A stretch of 64,000 nucleotides of DNA from Escherichia phage Murica, in the sequence record NC_041871.1; one strand, given 5' to 3'. This document shows positions 26,946 to 60,192 of the stretch, piece by piece. The notes under the pieces are model-generated. The model made no database searches, had not been told where the DNA came from, and saw only the letters and a program-made list of their open reading frames with translations. Within the stretch, counting starts at the first letter, position 1, and each line of letters starts with the position of its first letter. The position numbers were made by a program, and so were the translations under genes.

Positions 26946-27185
26946 ATGTACAAGTCATTTTCAATCTACTCAAGACAGGCGAAACACTACACAGAGATCC
27001 TGATCACTCAGAAAAAATCTGTGGAAGGTGAGTGGGAATATCACCATAAAATGTTGCGTCCAGACTGGGTTTTTGATAGACTTATTGCTATGATCCCTCT
27101 CGGAGAAGTATACCCTCTGACAGCCCATCGCGATGCTTGGGATTTAATTGATTACATAGATTCATTTAAGGAGCCTAGATTATGA
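26946..27185 (+). CDS. hypothetical protein
   Basis: ATG 26946 after a GGGGG-containing RBS. Confidence 0.35.
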   Translation: MYKSFSIYSRQAKHYTEILITQKKSVEGEWEYHHKMLRPDWVFDRLIAMIPLGEVYPLTAHRDAWDLIDYIDSFKEPRL

Positions 27186-27617: not shown

Positions 27618-27851
27618 ATGAAAGTTAAATTTCTTACAGATTTAGGGTACCCTTCCTTGGTTGACTGTGTTGGTAAAATTGTGGAAGCAAAACGGCTATC
27701 TGCAAACGAGAATGTTGTCCTGGTTAAAGGGAAGGATTTACTAGCTGCAGGTGCAGAGTCTGGCAGGATCTCTCCTGATTATATGTATTACCTATCTTTA
27801 AGTAATCTGCCAGAGCGAGGCGGTAAAGGCCTTGAAGTTGTGGAGGAGTGA
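27618..27851 (+). CDS. small acidic protein, MKVK paralog family
   Basis: MKVKFL...VGKIVEA...LVKGKDLLAAGAE...LEVVEE aligns with ORFs 31177 and 31394. Confidence 0.5.
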   Translation: MKVKFLTDLGYPSLVDCVGKIVEAKRLSANENVVLVKGKDLLAAGAESGRISPDYMYYLSLSNLPERGGKGLEVVEE

Positions 27852-30896: not shown

Positions 30897-31180
30897 TAAT
30901 GAAAAAGATTAACAGTAGTGAAGTAGAGTTTAAACTTGTCGGAAAAGGCACTTACTGGGAAGTTCGTCAAAAGGTATATTTGTTCGGTCTTATTCCCTAC
31001 TGGTCTAAATTCTACTGGGGAGCTAACGAGTTGGGAAGATATGCCACCAAATCAATGGCACTTATTGGTATAGCAGAGTACATTGCAGCCCGAGACAGGG
31101 TTGGAACCACTTATTACTACACTGCTGACGATATTCGTAACAGTGTTTACGTCCCACAACCACCTGATGGAGACCGTTGA
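30893..31180 (+). CDS. hypothetical protein
   Basis: 95-aa ORF with overlapping start. Confidence 0.4.
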   Translation: MIMKKINSSEVEFKLVGKGTYWEVRQKVYLFGLIPYWSKFYWGANELGRYATKSMALIGIAEYIAARDRVGTTYYYTADDIRNSVYVPQPPDGDR

Positions 31181-31404
31181 TGAAAGTTAAAGTTTTAGAT
31201 TCAAGCTTCTATATTGGTCAGGAGCCTTTAGTAGGAAAAGTGTTTACTGCTGTCCCTAACGAAGATTACCCTGACCTTTTAAAAATAAAAGGAGCAGATC
31301 TTATTGCCGCTGGTGCATCTCAGGAATGCTTTGACAGTCAGTGGACCTATAACTTTGCCCTAGGTGAGGATGTAGAGGTAGTGGAGGACGATCATGAAGG
31401 TTAA
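31177..31404 (+). CDS. small acidic protein, MKVK paralog family
   Basis: MKVKVLDSSFYIGQ..VGKV..IKGADLIAAGA..VEVVED. Confidence 0.5.
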   Translation: MMKVKVLDSSFYIGQEPLVGKVFTAVPNEDYPDLLKIKGADLIAAGASQECFDSQWTYNFALGEDVEVVEDDHEG

Positions 31405-31648
31405 AATTCTTGATTCTAACGTCTACTTGGGGCAATCCTTCCTGAATGGAAAGGTCGTTCCTGCGGTATACTTTGAAGGGTTGCCGTGGGATGATCCTGT
31501 GCGGCAACATCACAATTATGTAGGCCACAACGTGGTGTTTATCTTGGGATCAGACCTGATCACCGCTGGTGCACCTGAATATTATTTCGGGGAAGAGTCC
31601 TACTATGCCTTTGGGGTAGGGTCAGATGCAGATATTGTAGAGCTGTGA
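31394..31648 (+). CDS. small acidic protein, MKVK paralog family
   Basis: MKVKILDSNVYLGQ..NGKV..GSDLITAGA..DIVEL. Confidence 0.5.
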   Translation: MKVKILDSNVYLGQSFLNGKVVPAVYFEGLPWDDPVRQHHNYVGHNVVFILGSDLITAGAPEYYFGEESYYAFGVGSDADIVEL

Positions 31649-31660
31649 TGGGTAACCGTT

Positions 31661-32059
31661 GTGAAAAATAAACTGTTTAAAGTTACAATGAAAATTCGCG
31701 GGGCTTGGAGCGTAAAGCAAGGGCGTATTCCAGAATTTGAGAAAGACTTCTACGTAGTCTCCACCTCTGAGGAGGCTGCATGCTGGCAGGCTGGCTATGC
31801 CTATGCAAGAACCTGGTACGAAGGATACCAGACTGGGGGCTATGACGGAGAAATTATCAGCAAGGGTGTAGAAGAAATTAATGTGTTGACAAGTGAAAAA
31901 GTTTTTGTTATAGTGCATCCAGATTCCAGAGTGAAGCATTACTGGAATGCCAGAACAAAAACTTGGACACCGTTTGCAGATTCTGCTACGCCACTTTTAA
32001 ACCAGAAAGCTCTTGACTCTGCCCCAAGTTATGGGGTTGTTGAAGAAAAGCTAAACTGA
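31661..32059 (+). CDS. hypothetical protein, paralog of ORF 33870
   Basis: Shares KVFVIVHPDSRVKHYWNARTKTWTP with KFVMRHPHSNIAYYWDVLNNEWTP of ORF 33870. Confidence 0.5.
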   Translation: MKNKLFKVTMKIRGAWSVKQGRIPEFEKDFYVVSTSEEAACWQAGYAYARTWYEGYQTGGYDGEIISKGVEEINVLTSEKVFVIVHPDSRVKHYWNARTKTWTPFADSATPLLNQKALDSAPSYGVVEEKLN

Positions 32060-32076
32060 AACAGTGAGGTGTCACC

Positions 32077-32367
32077 ATGATGGATTTAATTCTAAATATT
32101 GATAACGCAGGAGAGTTTAAAGACGATGGTGTAACAAGCATGGACAAACCCTGCTCTGCTAAGGTTGACTCAAAATGGACCTACAAGTTTGACGGAGAGA
32201 TCTTCGCAAATGATGAGAAGGTTGTAGATGCTGCAGCCATTTTAAACGCTCTAGGGTACGACCCTGTGAATTCTTTGATCAAGGATCCTGTTGAGTTTGC
32301 AGAGTATGTTCGAAAAATGGCAGATCTTGCTGTGGATATTTTAAAAACTATCGACAACAAGCTGTAA
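32077..32367 (+). CDS. hypothetical protein
   Basis: 96-aa acidic ORF. Confidence 0.4.
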   Translation: MMDLILNIDNAGEFKDDGVTSMDKPCSAKVDSKWTYKFDGEIFANDEKVVDAAAILNALGYDPVNSLIKDPVEFAEYVRKMADLAVDILKTIDNKL

Positions 32368-32373
32368 AAACTG

Positions 32374-32402
32374 TTGACACAACGCTTCAGATTTAGTATC
32401 AT
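32374..32402 (+). promoter_or_regulatory. sigma70-type promoter TTGACA-17-TATCAT
   Basis: Consensus -35 with 17-nt spacer upstream of ORF 32452. Confidence 0.55.
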
Positions 32403-32451
32403 TGTTTTCAAAGAGAGATAGTTATTCCCTCTTCCTTAAAAGGAACACGTT

Positions 32452-32751
32452 ATGCAAATTGAAATCACTGGCAACAATGTAGAAATCACAGAAGGTATGG
32501 TATCTTTTATTTCCCGCAAAATGTCCAAGCTGGAGCGTTTACATCCCTCTGTTAACTATGCACGTGTGAGTGTAAAAGTTGAAAATGATCACCAGGAAGT
32601 TATGGCGTTCATTTTTGACAATTCTGGAAAAGAAGTTATTGCCAAGGCTAAAGGCAGTGATGCTTACGAGGCAACTGACCGTATGGTAGATGTTGCAGCA
32701 CGTCAGCTGGCTAAATGCGGTGGAAAGAAAGGTAAGGGGAAGGCAAAGTAA
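32452..32751 (+). CDS. small protein, possible MK-I/V-E paralog
   Basis: MQIEITGNNVEIT N-terminus; glycine/lysine-rich C-terminus. Confidence 0.4.
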   Translation: MQIEITGNNVEITEGMVSFISRKMSKLERLHPSVNYARVSVKVENDHQEVMAFIFDNSGKEVIAKAKGSDAYEATDRMVDVAARQLAKCGGKKGKGKAK

Positions 32752-32780
32752 AGATTGACTTTGGAGAATGAGGTGCTACA

Positions 32781-32882
32781 ATGGGTGTGATTAAGAAATT
32801 AGTCCCAAATGTAGAGATTGCATGCTTTGAAATTATGTTTGCAATCGCAGTTGTAGTTAATGTGTTAGGTTACGGCTATTAA
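32781..32882 (+). CDS. small hydrophobic peptide (33 aa)
   Basis: ATG 32781 after GGAG..GAGG; single TM-like segment; below ORF-track cutoff. Confidence 0.3.
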   Translation: MGVIKKLVPNVEIACFEIMFAIAVVVNVLGYGY

Positions 32883-32908
32883 TATCAAATAATTGAGGAG
32901 ACCTCTAA

Positions 32909-33178
32909 ATGAAAATTAAATTATTCCAAACTGAGCTGGCAGACAAAAATTGTGGACTGGTTGAAGGCATGATTGTTGAAGCACAACCAGTGGACTATAT
33001 GAAGGTGGTTCGTGATGCCCTAGGTGAAGGTTTTGATCTGATGGAGCCAGCTCTGCGAGAAGATGTTATCGAGATGGCTAAAAAGCACACACCTGAAGGT
33101 TTGGTGGTGTTTGTTGCACCGGGTAACGGAGAAGAGTTGATTGTAACTCCTGATGTGTATGAGATTGTAGAGGAATAA
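32909..33178 (+). CDS. small acidic protein, MK-I/V-K paralog family
   Basis: MKIKLFQTEL...EIVEE. Confidence 0.45.
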   Translation: MKIKLFQTELADKNCGLVEGMIVEAQPVDYMKVVRDALGEGFDLMEPALREDVIEMAKKHTPEGLVVFVAPGNGEELIVTPDVYEIVEE

Positions 33179-33197
33179 TCCTGCTTGGATTAGCATA

Positions 33198-33228
33198 CTT
33201 CCTCGCTAAGGAAGATTTGTAATTATTT
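33198..33228 (+). terminator. intrinsic terminator-like hairpin
   Basis: CTTCCT-cgcta-AGGAAG followed by ATTTGTAATTATTTG. Confidence 0.5.
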
Positions 33229-33269
33229 GTGGGAAAGGAGTCCCAATCTCTTACCAGAGGTGATACTAT

Positions 33270-33533
33270 ATGATTGTTTATTTTAAAACTTCAGGTGGAT
33301 ACCCTGATTCTCAAAGCTTGATCGGAAAAACGTGCACAGCATACTCACCTCTTGATGAGGAGGTAAGCGATATTTTACGAAATATGTATCGGATTGACCC
33401 CCAAGAAGCCTTTGATCAAAACCTTGTATTTGTCAAGGGCTCAGATATGAAGTCTTTGGGAGCATTCCCTGAAGCAGATGATGATGCCGTTTATTCGTTC
33501 ATGACTCCTTTTGAAGCTATGGTTGTTGGGTGA
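33270..33533 (+). CDS. small acidic protein, paralog family member
   Basis: GYPDSQSLIGKT...VFVKGSDMKSLGA aligns with the MKVK family core. Confidence 0.45.
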   Translation: MIVYFKTSGGYPDSQSLIGKTCTAYSPLDEEVSDILRNMYRIDPQEAFDQNLVFVKGSDMKSLGAFPEADDDAVYSFMTPFEAMVVG

Positions 33534-33537
33534 TAAT

Positions 33538-33870
33538 ATGAAAGTACGCTTTATTGGTGAAACAATTCCTGTGCATCTCCGGTCGCCTGAGGATTCTGCA
33601 GATCTTGCATCTCAAAAGGCGAGAGGTTATGATAAGAAAGTAACCTCAACCGATGTAGTGCTTGAGGCTACTAGTCTACCTGACCCTGCTGCATTCTTTA
33701 ATCATTATGGGTACTATTTCAGCAATCTGATGAATATCGGTGAGCTTGTGTTTATTAGTGGTGGAGAAATTGTTAGCAAGCTTGGCGGCGATCCGGATAT
33801 CTTTCATGAAACCTGTCCTTTTGCATTTGTGGTAGGTTCAGATGTGGAAGTTATTGAGGAGGTGCGGTAA
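33538..33870 (+). CDS. small acidic protein, MKVR paralog family
   Basis: Start moved to ATG 33538 (MKVRFIGE); ends VGSDVEVIEEVR. Confidence 0.45.
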   Translation: MKVRFIGETIPVHLRSPEDSADLASQKARGYDKKVTSTDVVLEATSLPDPAAFFNHYGYYFSNLMNIGELVFISGGEIVSKLGGDPDIFHETCPFAFVVGSDVEVIEEVR

Positions 33871-34265
33871 TGGTAAGCCTATACCGTGTTGAGTATAGCT
33901 CAGATACTGTATACAACGTAAGAAGCAAAGATCGCAGCGACAGAGTGCAAGAAATGTATGTTCTTGCCGACAGTCCGTTATCTGCAGCGTTCAAGGCAGG
34001 GGCTCTTGCATCTCGTTGGAAATTTGAAGGTGGATCTTTCTATGAAGAAACCCTTGAAGATTCTGTTGTTATTTCTTCTGTAGAGGTTTCAGATGACTAC
34101 GAAGGGAAAAAGTTCGTAATGCGGCACCCACACAGCAACATTGCGTACTACTGGGATGTTCTGAACAACGAGTGGACCCCAGATCTTCAGAAGGCTACTG
34201 TGCTAACACCGTTTTTGGCAGATAAGTTCCCACCAGAAGGTAATTTATCCGCACTGTTTCAGTAA
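33870..34265 (+). CDS. hypothetical protein, paralog of ORF 31661
   Basis: Shared HP-S..YW...WTP core with ORF 31661. Confidence 0.5.
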   Translation: MVSLYRVEYSSDTVYNVRSKDRSDRVQEMYVLADSPLSAAFKAGALASRWKFEGGSFYEETLEDSVVISSVEVSDDYEGKKFVMRHPHSNIAYYWDVLNNEWTPDLQKATVLTPFLADKFPPEGNLSALFQ

Positions 34266-34273
34266 TTTTCTTG

Positions 34274-34311
34274 CACACAGGTGTTGACAACGCCAACCCT
34301 GTGTGAAATAA
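34274..34311 (+). promoter_or_regulatory. promoter with -35 hexamer in a hairpin loop
   Basis: Inverted repeat CACACAGG-N16-CCTGTGTG encloses TTGACA (34283-34288); AATAAT 17 nt downstream. Confidence 0.45.
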
Positions 34312-34341
34312 TACCTTCATCTTAACAAGACAGGGGACCGA

Positions 34342-34602
34342 TTGATGAAGATTAAATTGAAAAACCTTGAAACGGCAGAGATTCAGGACGGTGTTGATTT
34401 CCGTTCTAAAGATGGTGACATCTTAGAGGTAAATATTCCAACCTACGAGCTGATTAAAGGTTTTGGCAACGTTCCGGAAGAGGATATTACAGAAATTCTT
34501 ATGATGTTGATTCTTGACGGAACTGTGTTTGTAGGTGAAGGTGAGAACGCTATTGCAATCCCAGGCCATTTTTATGAAGTAGTTGACGAAGAGGTGCTGT
34601 AA
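34342..34602 (+). CDS. small acidic protein, MK-I/V-K paralog family
   Basis: MMKIKLKNLE...YEVVDEEVL. Confidence 0.45.
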   Translation: MMKIKLKNLETAEIQDGVDFRSKDGDILEVNIPTYELIKGFGNVPEEDITEILMMLILDGTVFVGEGENAIAIPGHFYEVVDEEVL

Positions 34603-34953
34603 ATGAAAGTAGAAATTACCGGTTTTGATGTGAATGTGGTTCCGGAAGATATTTTAGCTAAACTTCCAGAAGGTTTTGGTAACGGCGTTGTGGTGGATGC
34701 TGTTCCTCCTACCAAAGACATTCTGCTGCAGTATGGTGTAGCAGAGGAAGATGTCGATAAAGTTCTTACAATGATGGCAATCGATCGTGTTGTCGTTGTT
34801 AAAGGTCTCGATAATTTTGAGAGTGATCCCCTGATTATTCGTGGAGATGACTACAAAATCATCGATAATGAAGGCCAAGAGTTCTATGAACCTTGTGCAG
34901 AAGATATTCTTAACTTATTACTGGAAGCAGGTACCGAAGAGGAGGACGAATAA
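34603..34953 (+). CDS. small acidic protein, MKVE paralog family (probable)
   Basis: MKVEITGFDVNVV; acidic C-terminus. Confidence 0.45.
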   Translation: MKVEITGFDVNVVPEDILAKLPEGFGNGVVVDAVPPTKDILLQYGVAEEDVDKVLTMMAIDRVVVVKGLDNFESDPLIIRGDDYKIIDNEGQEFYEPCAEDILNLLLEAGTEEEDE

Positions 34954-35282
34954 TGAAGATTGACCCGTTACTGAAGGCTCGTGCAGAAAAAGCGTACACC
35001 ATTAAGCTGACCAACCTGGTTCCTACTTGTCATCCAGATGTAGGTTGGCCTGAAGGTCTGGTAGAGGGGACTGTAACAGCTGCATACCTCCCTAACATCA
35101 AATACCTTATGGAAATCTTGGAGCTGGATGAGGAAACGGCAGAAGAGTTCCAGTTGGACATGAAACAAAGTGGGACTCTGGTTATTCACGGGTGGTATAA
35201 TACTAAAGACGCAGAAGACCCTCTTGTAACTTCTAATCTGGCATATGAAATCTTAGGACCTTTGAACCTGGGGGAAGACTAA
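34953..35282 (+). CDS. small acidic protein
   Basis: 109-aa ORF with ATGA overlap; N-terminus MKIDPL. Confidence 0.4.
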   Translation: MKIDPLLKARAEKAYTIKLTNLVPTCHPDVGWPEGLVEGTVTAAYLPNIKYLMEILELDEETAEEFQLDMKQSGTLVIHGWYNTKDAEDPLVTSNLAYEILGPLNLGED

Positions 35283-35569
35283 TGAAAGATCTGGTTAAGA
35301 TTAAGATTAAAGATACCAACGGCGAACTCAGCCATTTTGGAATTAATGATGGTGACGAGCTGATCGCACACCTGCCTACCAAGGAAGTTGTAAGCAAAGC
35401 AGTTGCCGGAGAAGAAGATGCAATGCAGGCTGCAGGTGTGGATGAAAACTATGTAGCCATGTGCATGTGCCGAGACCAGGTTGTTCTGTATAAAGCGTAT
35501 CGACCAAACGGAGCCACGGAGTGGCTTGTATTCCGACCCGAAGGATATGAAATCTTAGAGGCACTATGA
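35282..35569 (+). CDS. small acidic protein
   Basis: 95-aa ORF with ATGA overlap. Confidence 0.4.
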   Translation: MKDLVKIKIKDTNGELSHFGINDGDELIAHLPTKEVVSKAVAGEEDAMQAAGVDENYVAMCMCRDQVVLYKAYRPNGATEWLVFRPEGYEILEAL

Positions 35570-37045: not shown

Positions 37046-37353
37046 GGTGGATTATGTCTACAAAGGCGGCTAAATACTCCTACATGCCATCAACCTCTGC
37101 AGAGGTAGACTTTAGTTTCGATGTGTTTCCACTGTTTGAGGTGGTTCTGGCATACCCAACAATACTATCTACTCCTGAATCACTTGTACCTGTTAAGTTG
37201 CAGAACGCTATGCATTCTATGCACTACAACAATAAATGTAGGCACAGATGGTGTCAGGACGAGGAAAAAGATTTGGATAGTTTGAGGGATTTTGACAGTC
37301 ACCTTTTGACACCTTTCAGCTACTCCAACCTTGATAAGCCCTCATGGGTATAG
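37042..37353 (+). CDS. hypothetical protein
   Basis: 103-aa ORF with overlapping start. Confidence 0.4.
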   Translation: MRWIMSTKAAKYSYMPSTSAEVDFSFDVFPLFEVVLAYPTILSTPESLVPVKLQNAMHSMHYNNKCRHRWCQDEEKDLDSLRDFDSHLLTPFSYSNLDKPSWV

Positions 37354-38262: not shown

Positions 38263-39739
38263 CACACAATTAGCTGCCCGGCTAAAGTGCTGGAGCACCT
38301 ACAATACATCTTTCAACTAAATTTCCCACCACCACAATCACTTACCTTCCACACATGACTGTTTGCTTGTTTAGTGAGCAGTCATGCCTTGACATTCTTG
38401 CCTATCCTGATAAAATTAAGTTCTTCTCTTTTCTTTTACCGAGTAATTCGGGTTTTCTGTTCTCTTCGGTTTGAAGGGGTATGGAGATACACCTGAGTGA
38501 ACATGGTGAACAACCGAACATTTGGCTATGGCATTAGCATGGCGAAGCGGACGGGTGACGAAAGAGGGGCCGGAGGACACCAGTCACTGCCATATGATAT
38601 ATGGGTGATAACCTGAAGAGTCTGAATAAGTGTTTAAGTACCAGTCAGAGGAAAAGGTGAATGGTAGCCGAAGGGGGAGGGGGGTTTCTTGTATCTTTAA
38701 TTTGTATATTATGTATACACTCGTAAACCAATCTCATCTGAATCTGTTTACCACACAAAGTAGATAGGGACAAATATCACCTATTAAACTTGAATTATTT
38801 ATAGAAAATACCACAACACCACTTAAGTCTTTGATTTTACACACAAATCCTACAGATATTCAACCTCTATATTTAACATATTCATAACATATTCCATACT
38901 CTACCTGTCTGATCAATTTACCCAACCACATCCTCCATATTTTCCCTGTCTGTACCACCCCTGCCCCGCCGGGAGTCCCGTCATATCTGGCTTTCCAGCA
39001 AATATCACACCCACAAATATCATTGCCTGAAGAGGGTTTCATCCCATAGTACATGCCTTACCTGAAGAGCGCTTCATACACCACGTAAATTTTTTAATTT
39101 ACCCCCCCTCCCCGCCGCCGGAGTGGTCGGCTTTTCCCACACAGGCCTGAAGAGTCAGCCAGAAATATCTGAACAGGTCCAGTTATACCACGATTTTGAC
39201 CTGACCGACAGGAGTGCTGCCAGGCGGACGGAATGGGAATACTTCTCATTCTTATAATAATTCTCAAATATCGAGGCAGTGAGGCAAATTAATAGGTGAG
39301 GCCGTTCACACAGTGGCACAACATTTGCAATCTATTTTGTGAGGGTGAATGAGAATACCTATCATTGTGAGAACTGTTATCATTACGGGCAATTTAACAT
39401 AATACCCATTATGCGCACCACTGGCGATCCATACAGGGATTGATAACATGAGTTACAGTTTACGCATATAACAATCATATTTCTTACTATTTGTGTGGGA
39501 TATAGTTAGCAGCCGATAGATTAGATATTGACCTGTGGACTTCCAACCGTCTAGACGTCTAAACGCCCACACAACAAGGATTATACATACATTACTGAAT
39601 GTAAACAGGGCCGCAAAAATGCTACCATACCAGATTGTAAATTTTTCATGCAGCACTTGACAAAGAGGAGAAAAACTTGTCTGACACAATATGACATACT
39701 GGGCACATTAAACACACTTTAGACTTAATTGACATGCCT

Positions 39740-39862
39740 GACTGTTTACGCTGTCACTATTCACGCTATTACTATTCACTCCCTTTACTGTTCACGCTCT
39801 TACTGTTTACATGCTTAATGGTTTACATGACCAATAGTTTACATAGCTAACTATTTACATGG
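39740..39862. repeat. array of eight tandem 15-17-bp iterons
   Basis: Head-to-tail units ending TT(T/C)AC(G/A/T) with 15-16-bp period (e.g. ctgtcactattcacg, ctattactattcact, ctcttactgtttacatg, ccaatagtttacatag). Confidence 0.75.
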
Positions 39863-39871
39863 AAATGATAA

Positions 39872-40153
39872 GCCATGCCATTCGTTTGCATGATAACTAT
39901 TAGCAAGTTAATAATCTTTCGCTGGCTATGCCAGGTGACCTTTGGTCACCCCTTCGGGTGTTTCTATGACATAATATAAAAGCAGGGCAACTATTAGAAG
40001 ATCTATAGTTGCCTTGCTTGTTATGTCATGATTAACTAAATACAAGGCAACTATGATCTGATTAATAGTTTGCAAACAAACTATCACGGGGGGTGATGGT
40101 TACTGCTTTTATATTATGTCGCGACTCCGTCGCGCCATGCCATTCGTTTGCAT
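39872..40153. repeat. 262-bp dyad-rich element bounded by exact 20-bp direct repeats
   Basis: GCCATGCCATTCGTTTGCAT at 39872-39891 and 40134-40153; internal inverted repeats GGTGACC-ttt-GGTCACC, GGCAACTAT..ATAGTTGCC, GACATAATATAAAAGCA / TGCTTTTATATTATGTC. Confidence 0.75.
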
Positions 40154-40765
40154 AGTTGCCTTATTGTTACAGATAAAATAATTGTATTGTTAATTATTTC
40201 TTATCTTTCTCTTAGTCATCTAATGATTCCAGTCAGTATAGTAATGTACAGTAAACATTAGACGACTAAAGATTTATATGCTTATAATAACTTACAGTGA
40301 CAATTTCGGACTGTTTACGAAAAATGTTGACACCTGAGCCGATTTATGTTATGCAGTTTACACGAATAATTATTTTATGCAGGTATTGACTATTCCGTTA
40401 TTCTATGGTCGGAATAAATACTTAGCAGTCTATAGAATGGTGACGCTACGTGAATTCTGGAATTTAGTGGCTATAGTTATACCCGATTTTTCACGTAGAA
40501 CACGCTTTTGTGGTTATGTAAGTGTATGACTTATAAAGATTTTTAGTTGTTGACAAGACACTGAAGATATGCATCAGGTTAAATTTTGTGCAATAGCTGC
40601 ATTACGTGCAATTTTGGAAGGAAAAACGTGTAAAAATGGCCCTGCTACCACACAATGAAAGATTATGCAATAGCTATTTTATATGTATGTTTGTACAGTG
40701 TGTGGGATTGATGGCTAGTCAATTATTCCACTTGCCAGGTGGGGACGTTTGTGGTAGGAGAAATA

Positions 40766-40798
40766 CAGACAAAAAGAAAGGGGCCTTTTAAAGCCCCT
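40766..40798 (-). terminator. intrinsic terminator for minus-strand gene 40817-41236
   Basis: Minus strand: AGGGGC-N8-GCCCCT followed by TTCTTTTTGTC. Confidence 0.7.
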
Positions 40799-40816
40799 GA
40801 TAGTTTAGTTAAGAAA

Positions 40817-58005: not shown

Positions 58006-58369
58006 TCATCAGGTCTGCCATAGCGTCACCTACGAAGAGAACAACCACATCGTTGACAGCGTCAGCATCATCTTTATTGACGTTGCTGAATTTAGGACAC
58101 ACCGCAATGATCATATAGACACCGTTACCAACCTGAACTGTCCGTGTGGTGCACATCATGGCGGTATTTGTGCCTTCTTTGAAGGCGAAGCCTTGAAGAC
58201 GCTCCTCTAAAGTGTTACCGGTAGATTTCAGAAGCGCCAGCTCGTCCAAGGCATAGATGATATCTCCGGAAGTTAGTGTTGCCTTTCCATCAGACACCAT
58301 AATAACTCCATCAGCACCGTCAAGCTTAGAGGCTTCAAAGATATCAATATCCCAAATATTTTTCATCAC
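57977..58369 (-). CDS. hypothetical protein
   Basis: 130-aa ORF. Confidence 0.4.
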   Translation of the reverse strand: MMKNIWDIDIFEASKLDGADGVIMVSDGKATLTSGDIIYALDELALLKSTGNTLEERLQGFAFKEGTNTAMMCTTRTVQVGNGVYMIIAVCPKFSNVNKDDADAVNDVVVLFVGDAMADLMNAGEAANED

Positions 58370-58686
58370 GCTTCCTCGTCGTCTAAAGAGTTGAAGATTT
58401 CACCGAAGTATTCTAAGACTTCTAGCTCCCGTGTGGTGCAGAAAACACAGTCACCGTTGTCATCCTCGATAACGGCCTCTTTACCCAGCACATCTACTTC
58501 AAGTTTATCGTTCAACAGGACAGCCCCTGTGTAAACTTTGTCGGCTGTGCAGTCCCGAAAAGCAGAGTCTTTCTCCAGATAGTCTGGCTTAACCTTGGCT
58601 TTAATTCGTTGGTATTGTTTGGTCATTGCTGTGGTCCCCTTTCGTTTTGATAGGGCCATTATATTAGGCTCCATCACTGTTGTCAA
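58366..58686 (-). CDS. hypothetical protein, tandem paralog of ORF 58690
   Basis: Shares SAFRDCTADKVYTGA and DNGDCVFCTTRE blocks with the adjacent ORF. Confidence 0.45.
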   Translation of the reverse strand: MTTVMEPNIMALSKRKGTTAMTKQYQRIKAKVKPDYLEKDSAFRDCTADKVYTGAVLLNDKLEVDVLGKEAVIEDDNGDCVFCTTRELEVLEYFGEIFNSLDDEEA

Positions 58687-58689
58687 GTA

Positions 58690-58944
58690 TTAATGTTCAG
58701 GTTTTACAAAAACTACTTCATTAACAGTGCACCAGACAGAGTCTCCTTCATCATCTTTAAAGGTAAGGCACTGTGCTGAGTTTTCCAGCTCATCGATCTC
58801 TTCTTGTGATAAAGGGGCCCCTTCTTCCAGGAGGGCTTTTACCAGAGGGTTCTCACAAAACTCTGCTTCATAAATTGCACCGACTGTGCAATCTTTAAAA
58901 GCTCGGTCATTTGCAACGCATTCTGACTTCAAAGTAATTTTCAT
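58690..58944 (-). CDS. hypothetical protein, tandem paralog of ORF 58366
   Basis: RAFKDCTVGAIYEA and DEGDSVWCTVNE blocks. Confidence 0.45.
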   Translation of the reverse strand: MKITLKSECVANDRAFKDCTVGAIYEAEFCENPLVKALLEEGAPLSQEEIDELENSAQCLTFKDDEGDSVWCTVNEVVFVKPEH

Positions 58945-59419: not shown

Positions 59420-59597
59420 GAGTTGTGTTGTTCACTGCACCGCAGTAAATGGAGTATCCCAGCCCATTAGAGTGCAGAAACCACGGCGTGCCGAAATTAT
59501 CTTTCACGTAGACATCACCGTTGTTTGTAAAGGGCCAATATTCTTCCCCAAGGGTAAAATACCTATTCATACCTTCAGCAAGATACTTTACTTTCAT
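59403..59597 (-). CDS. hypothetical protein
   Basis: 64-aa ORF. Confidence 0.35.
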   Translation of the reverse strand: MKVKYLAEGMNRYFTLGEEYWPFTNNGDVYVKDNFGTPWFLHSNGLGYSIYCGAVNNTTLAEFV

Positions 59598-59821
59598 AGG
59601 TCCTCTTCAACAACTACAAACTTGGCAAGCAAAGTGGTTCCGTAGATATGATACTCACCGTTTGCCAGGTGAGAGATATACCAGGCAACCCCTTCCTCGT
59701 CTTTAATCATTTTGTTTGCACGAGCTTTATCGTAATAAACCTCGTAGGTCTTTCCTTCTTTAAAGAAGGACAGGTCTGTCATCTTTTCTTCTACAAAAGT
59801 AGCTTTAACCAAAGTTGTCAT
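59594..59821 (-). CDS. hypothetical protein
   Basis: 75-aa ORF. Confidence 0.4.
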   Translation of the reverse strand: MTTLVKATFVEEKMTDLSFFKEGKTYEVYYDKARANKMIKDEEGVAWYISHLANGEYHIYGTTLLAKFVVVEEDL

Positions 59822-60192
59822 TGATCGGTCTCCTTCTTGTTAAGTCTGAATACTGCAATAATAGCATTCCCAAGGTGCAGTGTCAAATCATTTCCAAGAT
59901 ACCACAACATTCCACGGTCATCTTTAATGAAAGGGTAACAATCTGGTGCCTTCCAGACATTGTACACTTTCCCAACCTGAAAGAAATCAGGCCCTGTTGG
60001 GATTTTGGTGCCAGGCCACACTTGAGATACCTGAACACACTCCACCTGCATAATAACAGGGATAGTCATAGATGTAAATGTTTTTGTTGGTTCTACTACC
60101 ATAAAAATCCCCTCTTTGCTCAACAGCACCTCCCTGTGCTGATAGTTTACATTAGTGACAATCACCCCAGTTCCGACCACACAAGTATTCAC
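59818..60192 (-). CDS. hypothetical protein
   Basis: 124-aa ORF directly downstream of the polymerase gene. Confidence 0.4.
   Translation of the reverse strand: MNTCVVGTGVIVTNVNYQHREVLLSKEGIFMVVEPTKTFTSMTIPVIMQVECVQVSQVWPGTKIPTGPDFFQVGKVYNVWKAPDCYPFIKDDRGMLWYLGNDLTLHLGNAIIAVFRLNKKETDQ

Follow-up and report, generated by a model that had tools for sequence, protein, structure and literature searches.

The window analysed here, a 64,000-nt stretch of the genome of Escherichia phage Murica (sequence record NC_041871.1), carries two diverged copies of a small gene cassette, the second of which is conditionally essential on a clinical Escherichia coli isolate in published transposon-insertion data for a closely related phage. 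On sequence grounds the phage is an rV5-like Vequintavirus. We name the small genes S and the genes of about 130 amino acids (aa) L, so that cassette 1 is S1-S2-L1 and cassette 2 is S3-S4-L2 (Table 1). The reading that we favour, with a probability of about 0.5, is that the cassettes are two old, diverged paralogous accessory modules, and that cassette 2 acts as a unit that overcomes an E. coli strain-specific barrier, its L and S proteins presumably forming a complex. The original prediction had described six open reading frames (ORFs) as a duplicated cassette; all six are present on the + strand at the coordinates given there, and they form two paralogous S-S-L sets.

The L proteins provide the clearest evidence for the duplication. 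L1 and L2 share 28% identity over 119 residues, and the similarity is significant in a pairwise BLASTP alignment (E 8e-10), in a comparison within all 348 ORFs of the window (E 2e-7), by phmmer (E 3e-10) and in a profile-profile comparison with hhalign (probability 99.1%). It was on the similarity of these two proteins that the original prediction had staked its case. Both match phrog_7379 over their full length, L1 with an E-value of 4.3e-74 (positions 2-132/131) and L2 with an E-value of 2.1e-66 (1-131/131). The HP-S..YW...WTP core noted earlier is likewise common to both (more fully, HP.S....YW......WTP), reading HPDSRVKHYWNARTKTWTP in L1 and HPHSNIAYYWDVLNNEWTP in L2. We accept the GTG start of L1 because L2 and a distant ortholog, which belongs to the lineage C described below and also starts with GTG, conserve the residues upstream of an alternative ATG. 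L2 is acidic, with an isoelectric point (pI) in the range of those of S1-S4 (all 4.1-4.7), and L1 is near neutral (pI 7.8).

Neither Pfam, at E <=1, nor NCBI-style annotation assigned any S or L protein to a family. Several apparent relatives of L did not hold up on inspection. Aphrodisin, the best profile match to L in the PDB (E 0.09), was dismissed as a chance hit, and tblastn at E <=0.01 gave no support for the old rV5 record note that calls L1 “similar to Listeria phage A118 protein”. P0050 and P0051, both long proteins, match L residues 21-52 with E ~1e-4 through a repeat that is not a curated Pfam domain, and these matches are uninformative. The 132-aa ORF that shortly precedes S0, at 27182, is unrelated to L by hidden Markov model (HMM) or hhalign comparison.

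The S genes form a larger and more divergent family. A local HMM seeded on the clear S members identifies exactly five genes in the window (starting at 27618, 31177, 31394, 33270 and 33538), namely the four cassette genes and S0, which stands alone. S1 and S2 are by far the closest pair (40% identity, E 1.6e-13; hhalign 98.3%); in the 348-ORF comparison S0 matches S1 with E 7e-6, and S4 matches S1 and S2 with E ~5e-3. Profiles built from ortholog groups link most S pairs at 81-98% probability in hhalign, including S2-S4 (94.5%), S2-S3 (92.7%) and S0-S3 (87%), the exception being S3-S4, the lowest pair at 20%. S1, S0 and S2 match phrog_5009 over their full length (E 1.7e-38, 8e-36 and 3.6e-32, respectively). 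S3 belongs to a family of its own, phrog_13920, and matches phrog_5009 weakly (E 1.2e-4, 58/74 positions); S4 also has its own family, phrog_13661, and gives no phrog_5009 match at E <=0.01. S3 and S4 are thus placed in the S family solely because the local HMM and hhalign (81-94%) join them to it. The description of the small genes as “MKVK-type” was too uniform, since the protein from 33270 begins MIVYF and S1 probably starts at the ATG at 31180, which has a GGAG 7 nt upstream, and not at 31177.

AlphaFold2, run on a 19-sequence alignment, models S1 as a small beta-barrel that includes a single short helix, at a mean predicted local distance difference test score (pLDDT) of 92.2. The model predicts an SH3-like barrel for the S family, with a five-strand topology that can be superposed on SH3 and KOW domains. 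The likeness, which extends to PsaE and the retroviral integrase C-terminal domain, is one of fold as modelled for S1, with no Pfam SH3, KOW or Sm sequence match. Foldseek searches with this model returned no PDB match at E <0.8, and hence no specific solved relative, and found many uncharacterised small phage proteins as neighbours, with TM-scores of 0.7-0.87. The S paralogs differ chiefly by an insertion in one hairpin loop, which is lacking in S0 and S1 and measures 13 residues in S2, ~25 in S3 and ~40 in S4. S1-S4 are all acidic, and S0 has a pI of 5.4.

The cassettes are compact and well conserved. Their gene starts bear Shine-Dalgarno motifs, the distance from one gene to the next within a cassette ranges from -11 to +12 nt, and the stop codon of S4 overlaps the start codon of L2 (TAATG), an arrangement that fits co-translation within each cassette. 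In a random permutation of the 42-gene block with its five S and two L genes, the chance of two S genes preceding both L genes is P ~5e-5. We computed the ratio of nonsynonymous to synonymous substitution rates (dN/dS) against three rV5-type variants (dS 0.15-1.0), taking only gap-free alignments, which excluded S2. Over the remaining cassette genes dN/dS was 0.02-0.08, with values of 0.05 for S1 and 0.05-0.08 for S3, and was lowest for the L genes (L1, 0.02-0.04; L2, 0.02-0.07). The cassette genes that align without gaps are under strong purifying selection.

A phenotype for these genes can be read from HIDEN-SEQ, a transposon-insertion sequencing study of phages released as a 2025 preprint, which includes Bas54 (phage MaxBurger; bioRxiv 10.1101/2025.11.20.689424). 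Bas54 is 99.6% identical to the window in this region. We assigned bas54 locus tags to the S and L genes by GenBank coordinates and TA-site counts, and re-read their phenotypes from Extended Data Table 8, which compares K-12 with CFE311, a clinical, uropathogenic E. coli isolate (10.1101/2025.11.20.689424). On K-12, all cassette genes are non-essential or intermediate. On CFE311, mean insertions fall to 0.0 in all three genes of cassette 2: from 142.2 in S3 (log2 fold change -7.16), from 71.0 in S4 (-6.17) and from 108.3 in L2 (-6.77), each with an adjusted P of 0. L1 is partially required (log2 fold change -2.14, adjusted P 0), and the changes for S2 (-0.30), S1 (+0.98) and S0 (+0.72) are not significant. 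The effect stops at the edges of cassette 2: the gene after L2 (bas54_0149, +0.40) and bas54_0154-0156 are unaffected, and none of the spacer genes between the cassettes is significantly depleted, with T0 at -2.78 and the hibernation factor gene at -0.53, both not significant. The S3, S4 and L2 phenotype is not discussed in the preprint (10.1101/2025.11.20.689424).

Residual polarity of the insertions could be invoked to explain the cassette 2 signal. We consider this unlikely, and polarity is in any case an imperfect explanation, because S2 insertions directly upstream of L1 show no phenotype and because insertions in bas54_0170 are tolerated even though this gene overlaps the near-essential bas54_0169. 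The authors of the data likewise argue against widespread polarity (10.1101/2025.11.20.689424).

On the best reading of these data, cassette 2 serves host range or counter-defence in a strain-specific way. In the literature data S3, S4 and L2 are non-essential or intermediate on K-12 and fully depleted on CFE311, the pattern expected of counter-defence genes, which are dispensable on a defence-poor host and required where the barrier is present. Two further observations support this reading. First, the natural isolate Bas59 (EduardKellenberger, MZ501061.1; L028) carries a ~3.8-kb deletion in which S1, S2 and the greater part of L1 are lost and a “glycosidase” gene is joined to the L1 C-terminus, with cassette 2 left in place. 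Second, bas54_0140, reported in the preprint as a counter-defence gene required to overcome the predicted defence system DS-28 of CFE311, has its ortholog at 37054-37353 of the window, in the same rightward gene block and ~3 kb downstream of L2. The claim that the small proteins act with their larger partner is supported by the transposon data for cassette 2, where each of the three genes is conditionally essential on CFE311, and not for cassette 1, where insertions in L1 are depleted and those in S1 and S2 are not.

Mechanistically, S3, S4 and L2 would work together, most probably in a protein complex whose subunits are produced in fixed proportions by coupled genes. Early in infection this unit would neutralise a strain-specific barrier, which could be a defence system or a variant host factor. 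L may be the specificity or effector subunit, and the S barrels may serve as binding or adaptor subunits, in which the variable loop (0 to ~40 inserted residues) would tune partner recognition. Duplication and divergence could in this way have produced two modules with different host-strain specificities. A more specific proposal is possible but somewhat unlikely: S3, S4 and L2 would together form a counter-defence system of three proteins not recognised before, drawn from two new families, SH3-like adaptors and rV5-restricted 130-aa effectors, and S1-S2-L1 would target another variant of the same barrier. If it is correct, duplication of the cassette is a device for host-range expansion; a multi-protein counter-defence device would bring new protein families into the counter-defence repertoire and illustrate clearly how duplication and divergence can widen host range.

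The distribution of the two families bears on how closely they depend on each other. An exhaustive profile search for L in 1.84 billion representative proteins gave 7 hits, of which 5 are real and all rV5-like, and tblastn against 50,697 phage records found L only in Vequintavirus-type genomes, with two copies in each. Word-index, IMG/VR and JGI metagenome searches for L returned only rV5-like sequences. The L family is restricted to rV5-like phages. S is slightly wider: homologs of S0, 41-49% identical over their full length, occur in the temperate coliphages mEp021 (gp40), mEp013 and mEp554 and in E. coli prophages, and fall inside the S family in a clade with S0 (98% bootstrap). The mEp phages have a single S gene with no L nearby; it lies after the late regulator Q and before the lysis genes or the reverse, flanked by the two, where morons are typically found.

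Within the rV5-like phages we distinguish three lineages. Lineage A, comprising the window and all GenBank rV5-type phages, has the order S0 ... S1 S2 L1 g96 HPF g33 T0 S3 S4 L2 T1 (g96 and g33 are the spacer genes of 96 and 33 aa in Table 1; the T genes are described below). Lineage B (L020-L023), which includes a 124-kb contig inside the E. coli assembly GCA_034560175.1, keeps this order with L1 replaced by an unrelated helical gene of 96-104 aa, and has a P22 Y8K6-like gene after L2. Lineage C consists of uncultivated contigs of 117-140 kb (L008-L011 and L016-L018); it carries S0, then a 99-aa and a 120-aa gene directly upstream of L1, and lacks S1-S4, L2 and the hibernation factor, a gene that is present in lineages A and B. 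Lineages B and C, both uncultivated, have no representatives in the GenBank phage collection, and their orthologs are 30-90% identical to the window proteins. The gene that replaces L1 in lineage B and those that replace S1 and S2 in lineage C were ruled out as degenerate L or S genes (probabilities <1%); the lineage B helical gene and the lineage C 99-aa gene look related by eye. S0 is the sole S gene kept in all three lineages.

Several points weigh against cassette 2 being a counter-defence unit built from cooperating S and L proteins. The phenotype is documented on a single host strain, because the supplement sheet titled K-12 vs CFE303 (Data S6/S7) repeats the CFE311 numbers and its command line names a “311” sample (10.1101/2025.11.20.689424). 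Counter-defence is a role that we infer, since bas54_0063 (a MoxR ATPase) and bas54_0140 were the only genes followed up and knocked out in the preprint, both of them countering DS-28, and only DS-28 and Gao_Tmn were cloned from CFE311 (10.1101/2025.11.20.689424). None of the PADLOC-DB defence and anti-defence models matches any S or L protein at E <=1. For the L fold, AlphaFold2 reached a pLDDT of only 43.7 from a three-sequence alignment. In cassette 1 a phenotype is seen for L1 and not for S1 or S2 (10.1101/2025.11.20.689424). S and L are evolutionarily separable, because lineage B has S1-S2 without L1 and lineage C has L1 without an adjacent S. Finally, the temperate mEp phages carry one S gene and no L.

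Several of these points suggest another explanation, in which the genes are neighbours by descent only: S and L would be independent accessory families in a plastic region, each acting alone, and the S-S-L order would be a relic of duplication. S genes do occur without L at cassette 1 of lineage B, at S0 everywhere and in the three mEp phages, and L1 occurs without S in lineage C; S1 and S2 lack a phenotype where L1 has one; and the same gene block holds the five acidic T genes, which come with no L gene. The cassette region is also recombinationally plastic. Besides the Bas59 deletion, public data contain an S1/S2 fusion (P0013), L1 fused to the next gene (P0048) and a chimera of an mEp-type S with S1 (rearranged proteins P0013, P0008, P0048 and P0045). 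We nevertheless judge descent alone to be unlikely, because the three adjacent genes of cassette 2 share an all-or-none strain-specific phenotype that the neighbours on both sides do not, and because the S3-S4-L2 order and tight spacing are kept between lineages A and B despite protein identities of 40-60%.

A further alternative is that the module acts on host physiology, through translation or transcription, and is required only where the host has a certain physiology or carries a certain variant of a factor. In its fold S is like KOW and ribosomal SH3-like barrels (a generic likeness), an HPF/RaiA-like gene lies between the cassettes and shares with cassette 2 its nearest annotated upstream promoter, and ClpP-like and PhoH-like genes lie upstream. 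We regard this explanation as quite improbable: core translation and transcription machinery differs little between E. coli strains, whereas defence content differs greatly. The same argument is made by the HIDEN-SEQ authors (10.1101/2025.11.20.689424), in whose data CFE311 does not make even the hibernation factor conditionally essential.

How the repeat arose is a matter of descent and not of function, and the alternatives here are compatible with the favoured reading. The original prediction proposed an ancient tandem duplication of a three-gene block. The age is upheld: all five S groups and both L groups are older than the A/B split, with sister-lineage orthologs 40-80% identical. The arrangement is not tandem, as four genes lie between the copies. 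At the DNA level no similarity is left between cassettes 1 and 2 except for one collinear 23-nt match at the S2/S4 C-termini. tblastx identifies two collinear segments, S2/S4 and L1/L2, at offsets of 64 and 71 nt, and therefore at least one S-L pair was copied as a unit.

Position-wise orthology for the whole three-gene block finds support for L1-L2 and S2-S4, and S1-S3 is not favoured: neighbour-joining bootstraps over 70 aligned columns are 67% for S3+S4 and 58% for S1+S2, against 11% for S2+S4 and 4% for S1+S3. The data are compatible with independent tandem S duplications or with gene conversion between adjacent S genes. An ancestral S-L pair may have been copied and S then tandemly duplicated in each copy, or a three-gene block may have been copied and its adjacent S genes homogenised by gene conversion. 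We consider such a history quite possible, if somewhat short of an even chance. The trees pair S1 with S2 and S3 with S4, weakly; S1-S2 is by far the closest S pair; and the natural S1/S2 recombinant P0013 represents exchange between adjacent S genes. Against it, hhalign places S3-S4 at only 20% compared with 94.5% for S2-S4 and 92.7% for S2-S3, S2, S3 and S4 share an insertion site in the same loop that S0 and S1 lack, and with sequences this short long-branch attraction between S3 and S4 is likely.

Parts of this system were already on record. The genes are in databases as hypothetical proteins, including the rV5 record, in which the six cassette genes are gp135-137 and gp142-144 and every one is annotated “hypothetical”. 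PHROGs already clusters L1 with L2 (phrog_7379) and S0 with S1 and S2 (phrog_5009), and keeps S3 and S4 in separate families; all four families are listed as “unknown function”, with no firm link of S3 or S4 to phrog_5009 and no gene-order or cassette information. The closest functional parallels are bas54_0063 and bas54_0140, which, like factors of T4 and Bas37, were found as counter-defence genes by conditional essentiality in the HIDEN-SEQ study. They share with S3, S4 and L2 the screen, the host strain and the type of phenotype (dispensable on K-12, lost on CFE311); in sequence, neither bas54_0140 nor known anti-defence proteins are related to S3, S4 or L2, which are candidates from the screen.

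The searchable literature contains no description of the cassette structure, the S fold, the extent of the S family or the link to a phenotype, and nothing relevant was found on rV5 paralogs, mEp021 gp40 or a Vequintavirus transcriptome. Phages of the rV5 type are isolated in many places, their use in therapy and in biocontrol of pathogenic E. coli is under consideration, and most of their ~230 genes are without known function. Through our analysis six “hypothetical proteins” become a defined module present in two copies; one component has a modelled fold, and a public dataset supplies a strain-specific phenotype.

Both cassettes sit within a long + strand block of tightly packed small genes (~26-38 kb), which is preceded by ClpP-like, PhoH-like and methyltransferase genes. 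The region from 30.8 to 35.6 kb of the window is 99.9% identical to Escherichia phage vB_EcoM_SophiaRose and shares >=90% identity with 119 records of rV5-type phages (genus Vequintavirus). A consensus scan identified two sigma-70-like promoters that coincide with annotated rV5 promoters. Of the annotated promoters upstream of cassette 2, the P144 equivalent lies closest to it; the P150 equivalent, in the 79-nt gap 3' of L2, marks where the cassette 2 unit ends downstream.

Table 1. Cassette genes, the solitary S gene, the inter-cassette spacer and predicted promoters in the window.
Feature	Position	Strand	Description
S1	31180..31404	+	74 aa, pI 4.1; first small gene of cassette 1; rV5 gp135 = bas54_0159
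S2	31394..31648	+	84 aa, S1 paralog; bas54_0158; 11-nt overlap with S1
L1	31661..32059	+	132 aa, Trp-rich, GTG start; rV5 gp137 = bas54_0157
S3	33270..33533	+	87 aa, divergent S member; opens cassette 2; bas54_0152
S4	33538..33870	+	110 aa, divergent S member; N-terminal and loop insertions; bas54_0151
L2	33870..34265	+	131 aa, Trp-rich, L1 paralog; rV5 gp144 = bas54_0150
S0	27618..27851	+	77 aa, fifth S member, alone, no L gene adjoining; bas54_0166
Inter-cassette spacer	32077..33178	+	four genes, ~1.2 kb
96-aa acidic gene	32077-32367	+	in inter-cassette spacer
Ribosome hibernation factor/RaiA-like (HPF) gene	32452-32751 (alternative annotated start near 32431)	+	in inter-cassette spacer
33-aa ORF	32781-32882	+	in inter-cassette spacer
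T0	32909-33178	+	second acidic paralog family; in inter-cassette spacer
Promoter, sigma-70-like	32374..32402	+	TTGACA-17-TATCAT; consensus scan; = rV5 P144; upstream of hibernation factor gene
Promoter, sigma-70-like, extended -10	34284..34312	+	TTGACA-17-AATAAT; consensus scan; = rV5 P150

The T family, which takes up much of the rest of the block, comprises five acidic small paralogs, T0-T4 (pI 4.0-4.7), of which T1-T4 follow cassette 2 at 34342-34602, 34603-34953, 34953-35282 and 35282-35569. T and S proteins follow a similar sequence template, with an N-terminal MKIKL strand and a C-terminal YEVVEE, and hhalign gives no link between the two families at >=20% probability; S and T possibly form one superfamily. 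None of T0-T4 is conditionally essential on CFE311 (10.1101/2025.11.20.689424).

Downstream of the block, ~2.5 kb between convergent + and - strand gene blocks (38300-40800) are without convincing ORFs, and contain no tRNA and no Rfam match. GGCAACTAT-type repeats are clustered there at 39.87-40.17 kb: a direct repeat of 20 nt at 39872 and 40134 and an inverted repeat of 18 nt at 39968/40103, both exact, and a hairpin (39980-40019). The matching intergenic region of Bas54 is reported to tolerate no transposon insertions (10.1101/2025.11.20.689424). This region may be a replication origin or another essential element acting in cis.

Among the records that match the rV5-type region at 98-99.9% identity are 18 MG0656xx entries labelled as Campylobacter jejuni phages (C12, C14, A142 and others), and these host labels look doubtful. 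Elsewhere in the window, small ORFs on the - strand include three more weak paralog pairs (58366-58944, 59594-60192 and 46122-46361/52442-52639; phmmer E 5e-6 to 3e-4).

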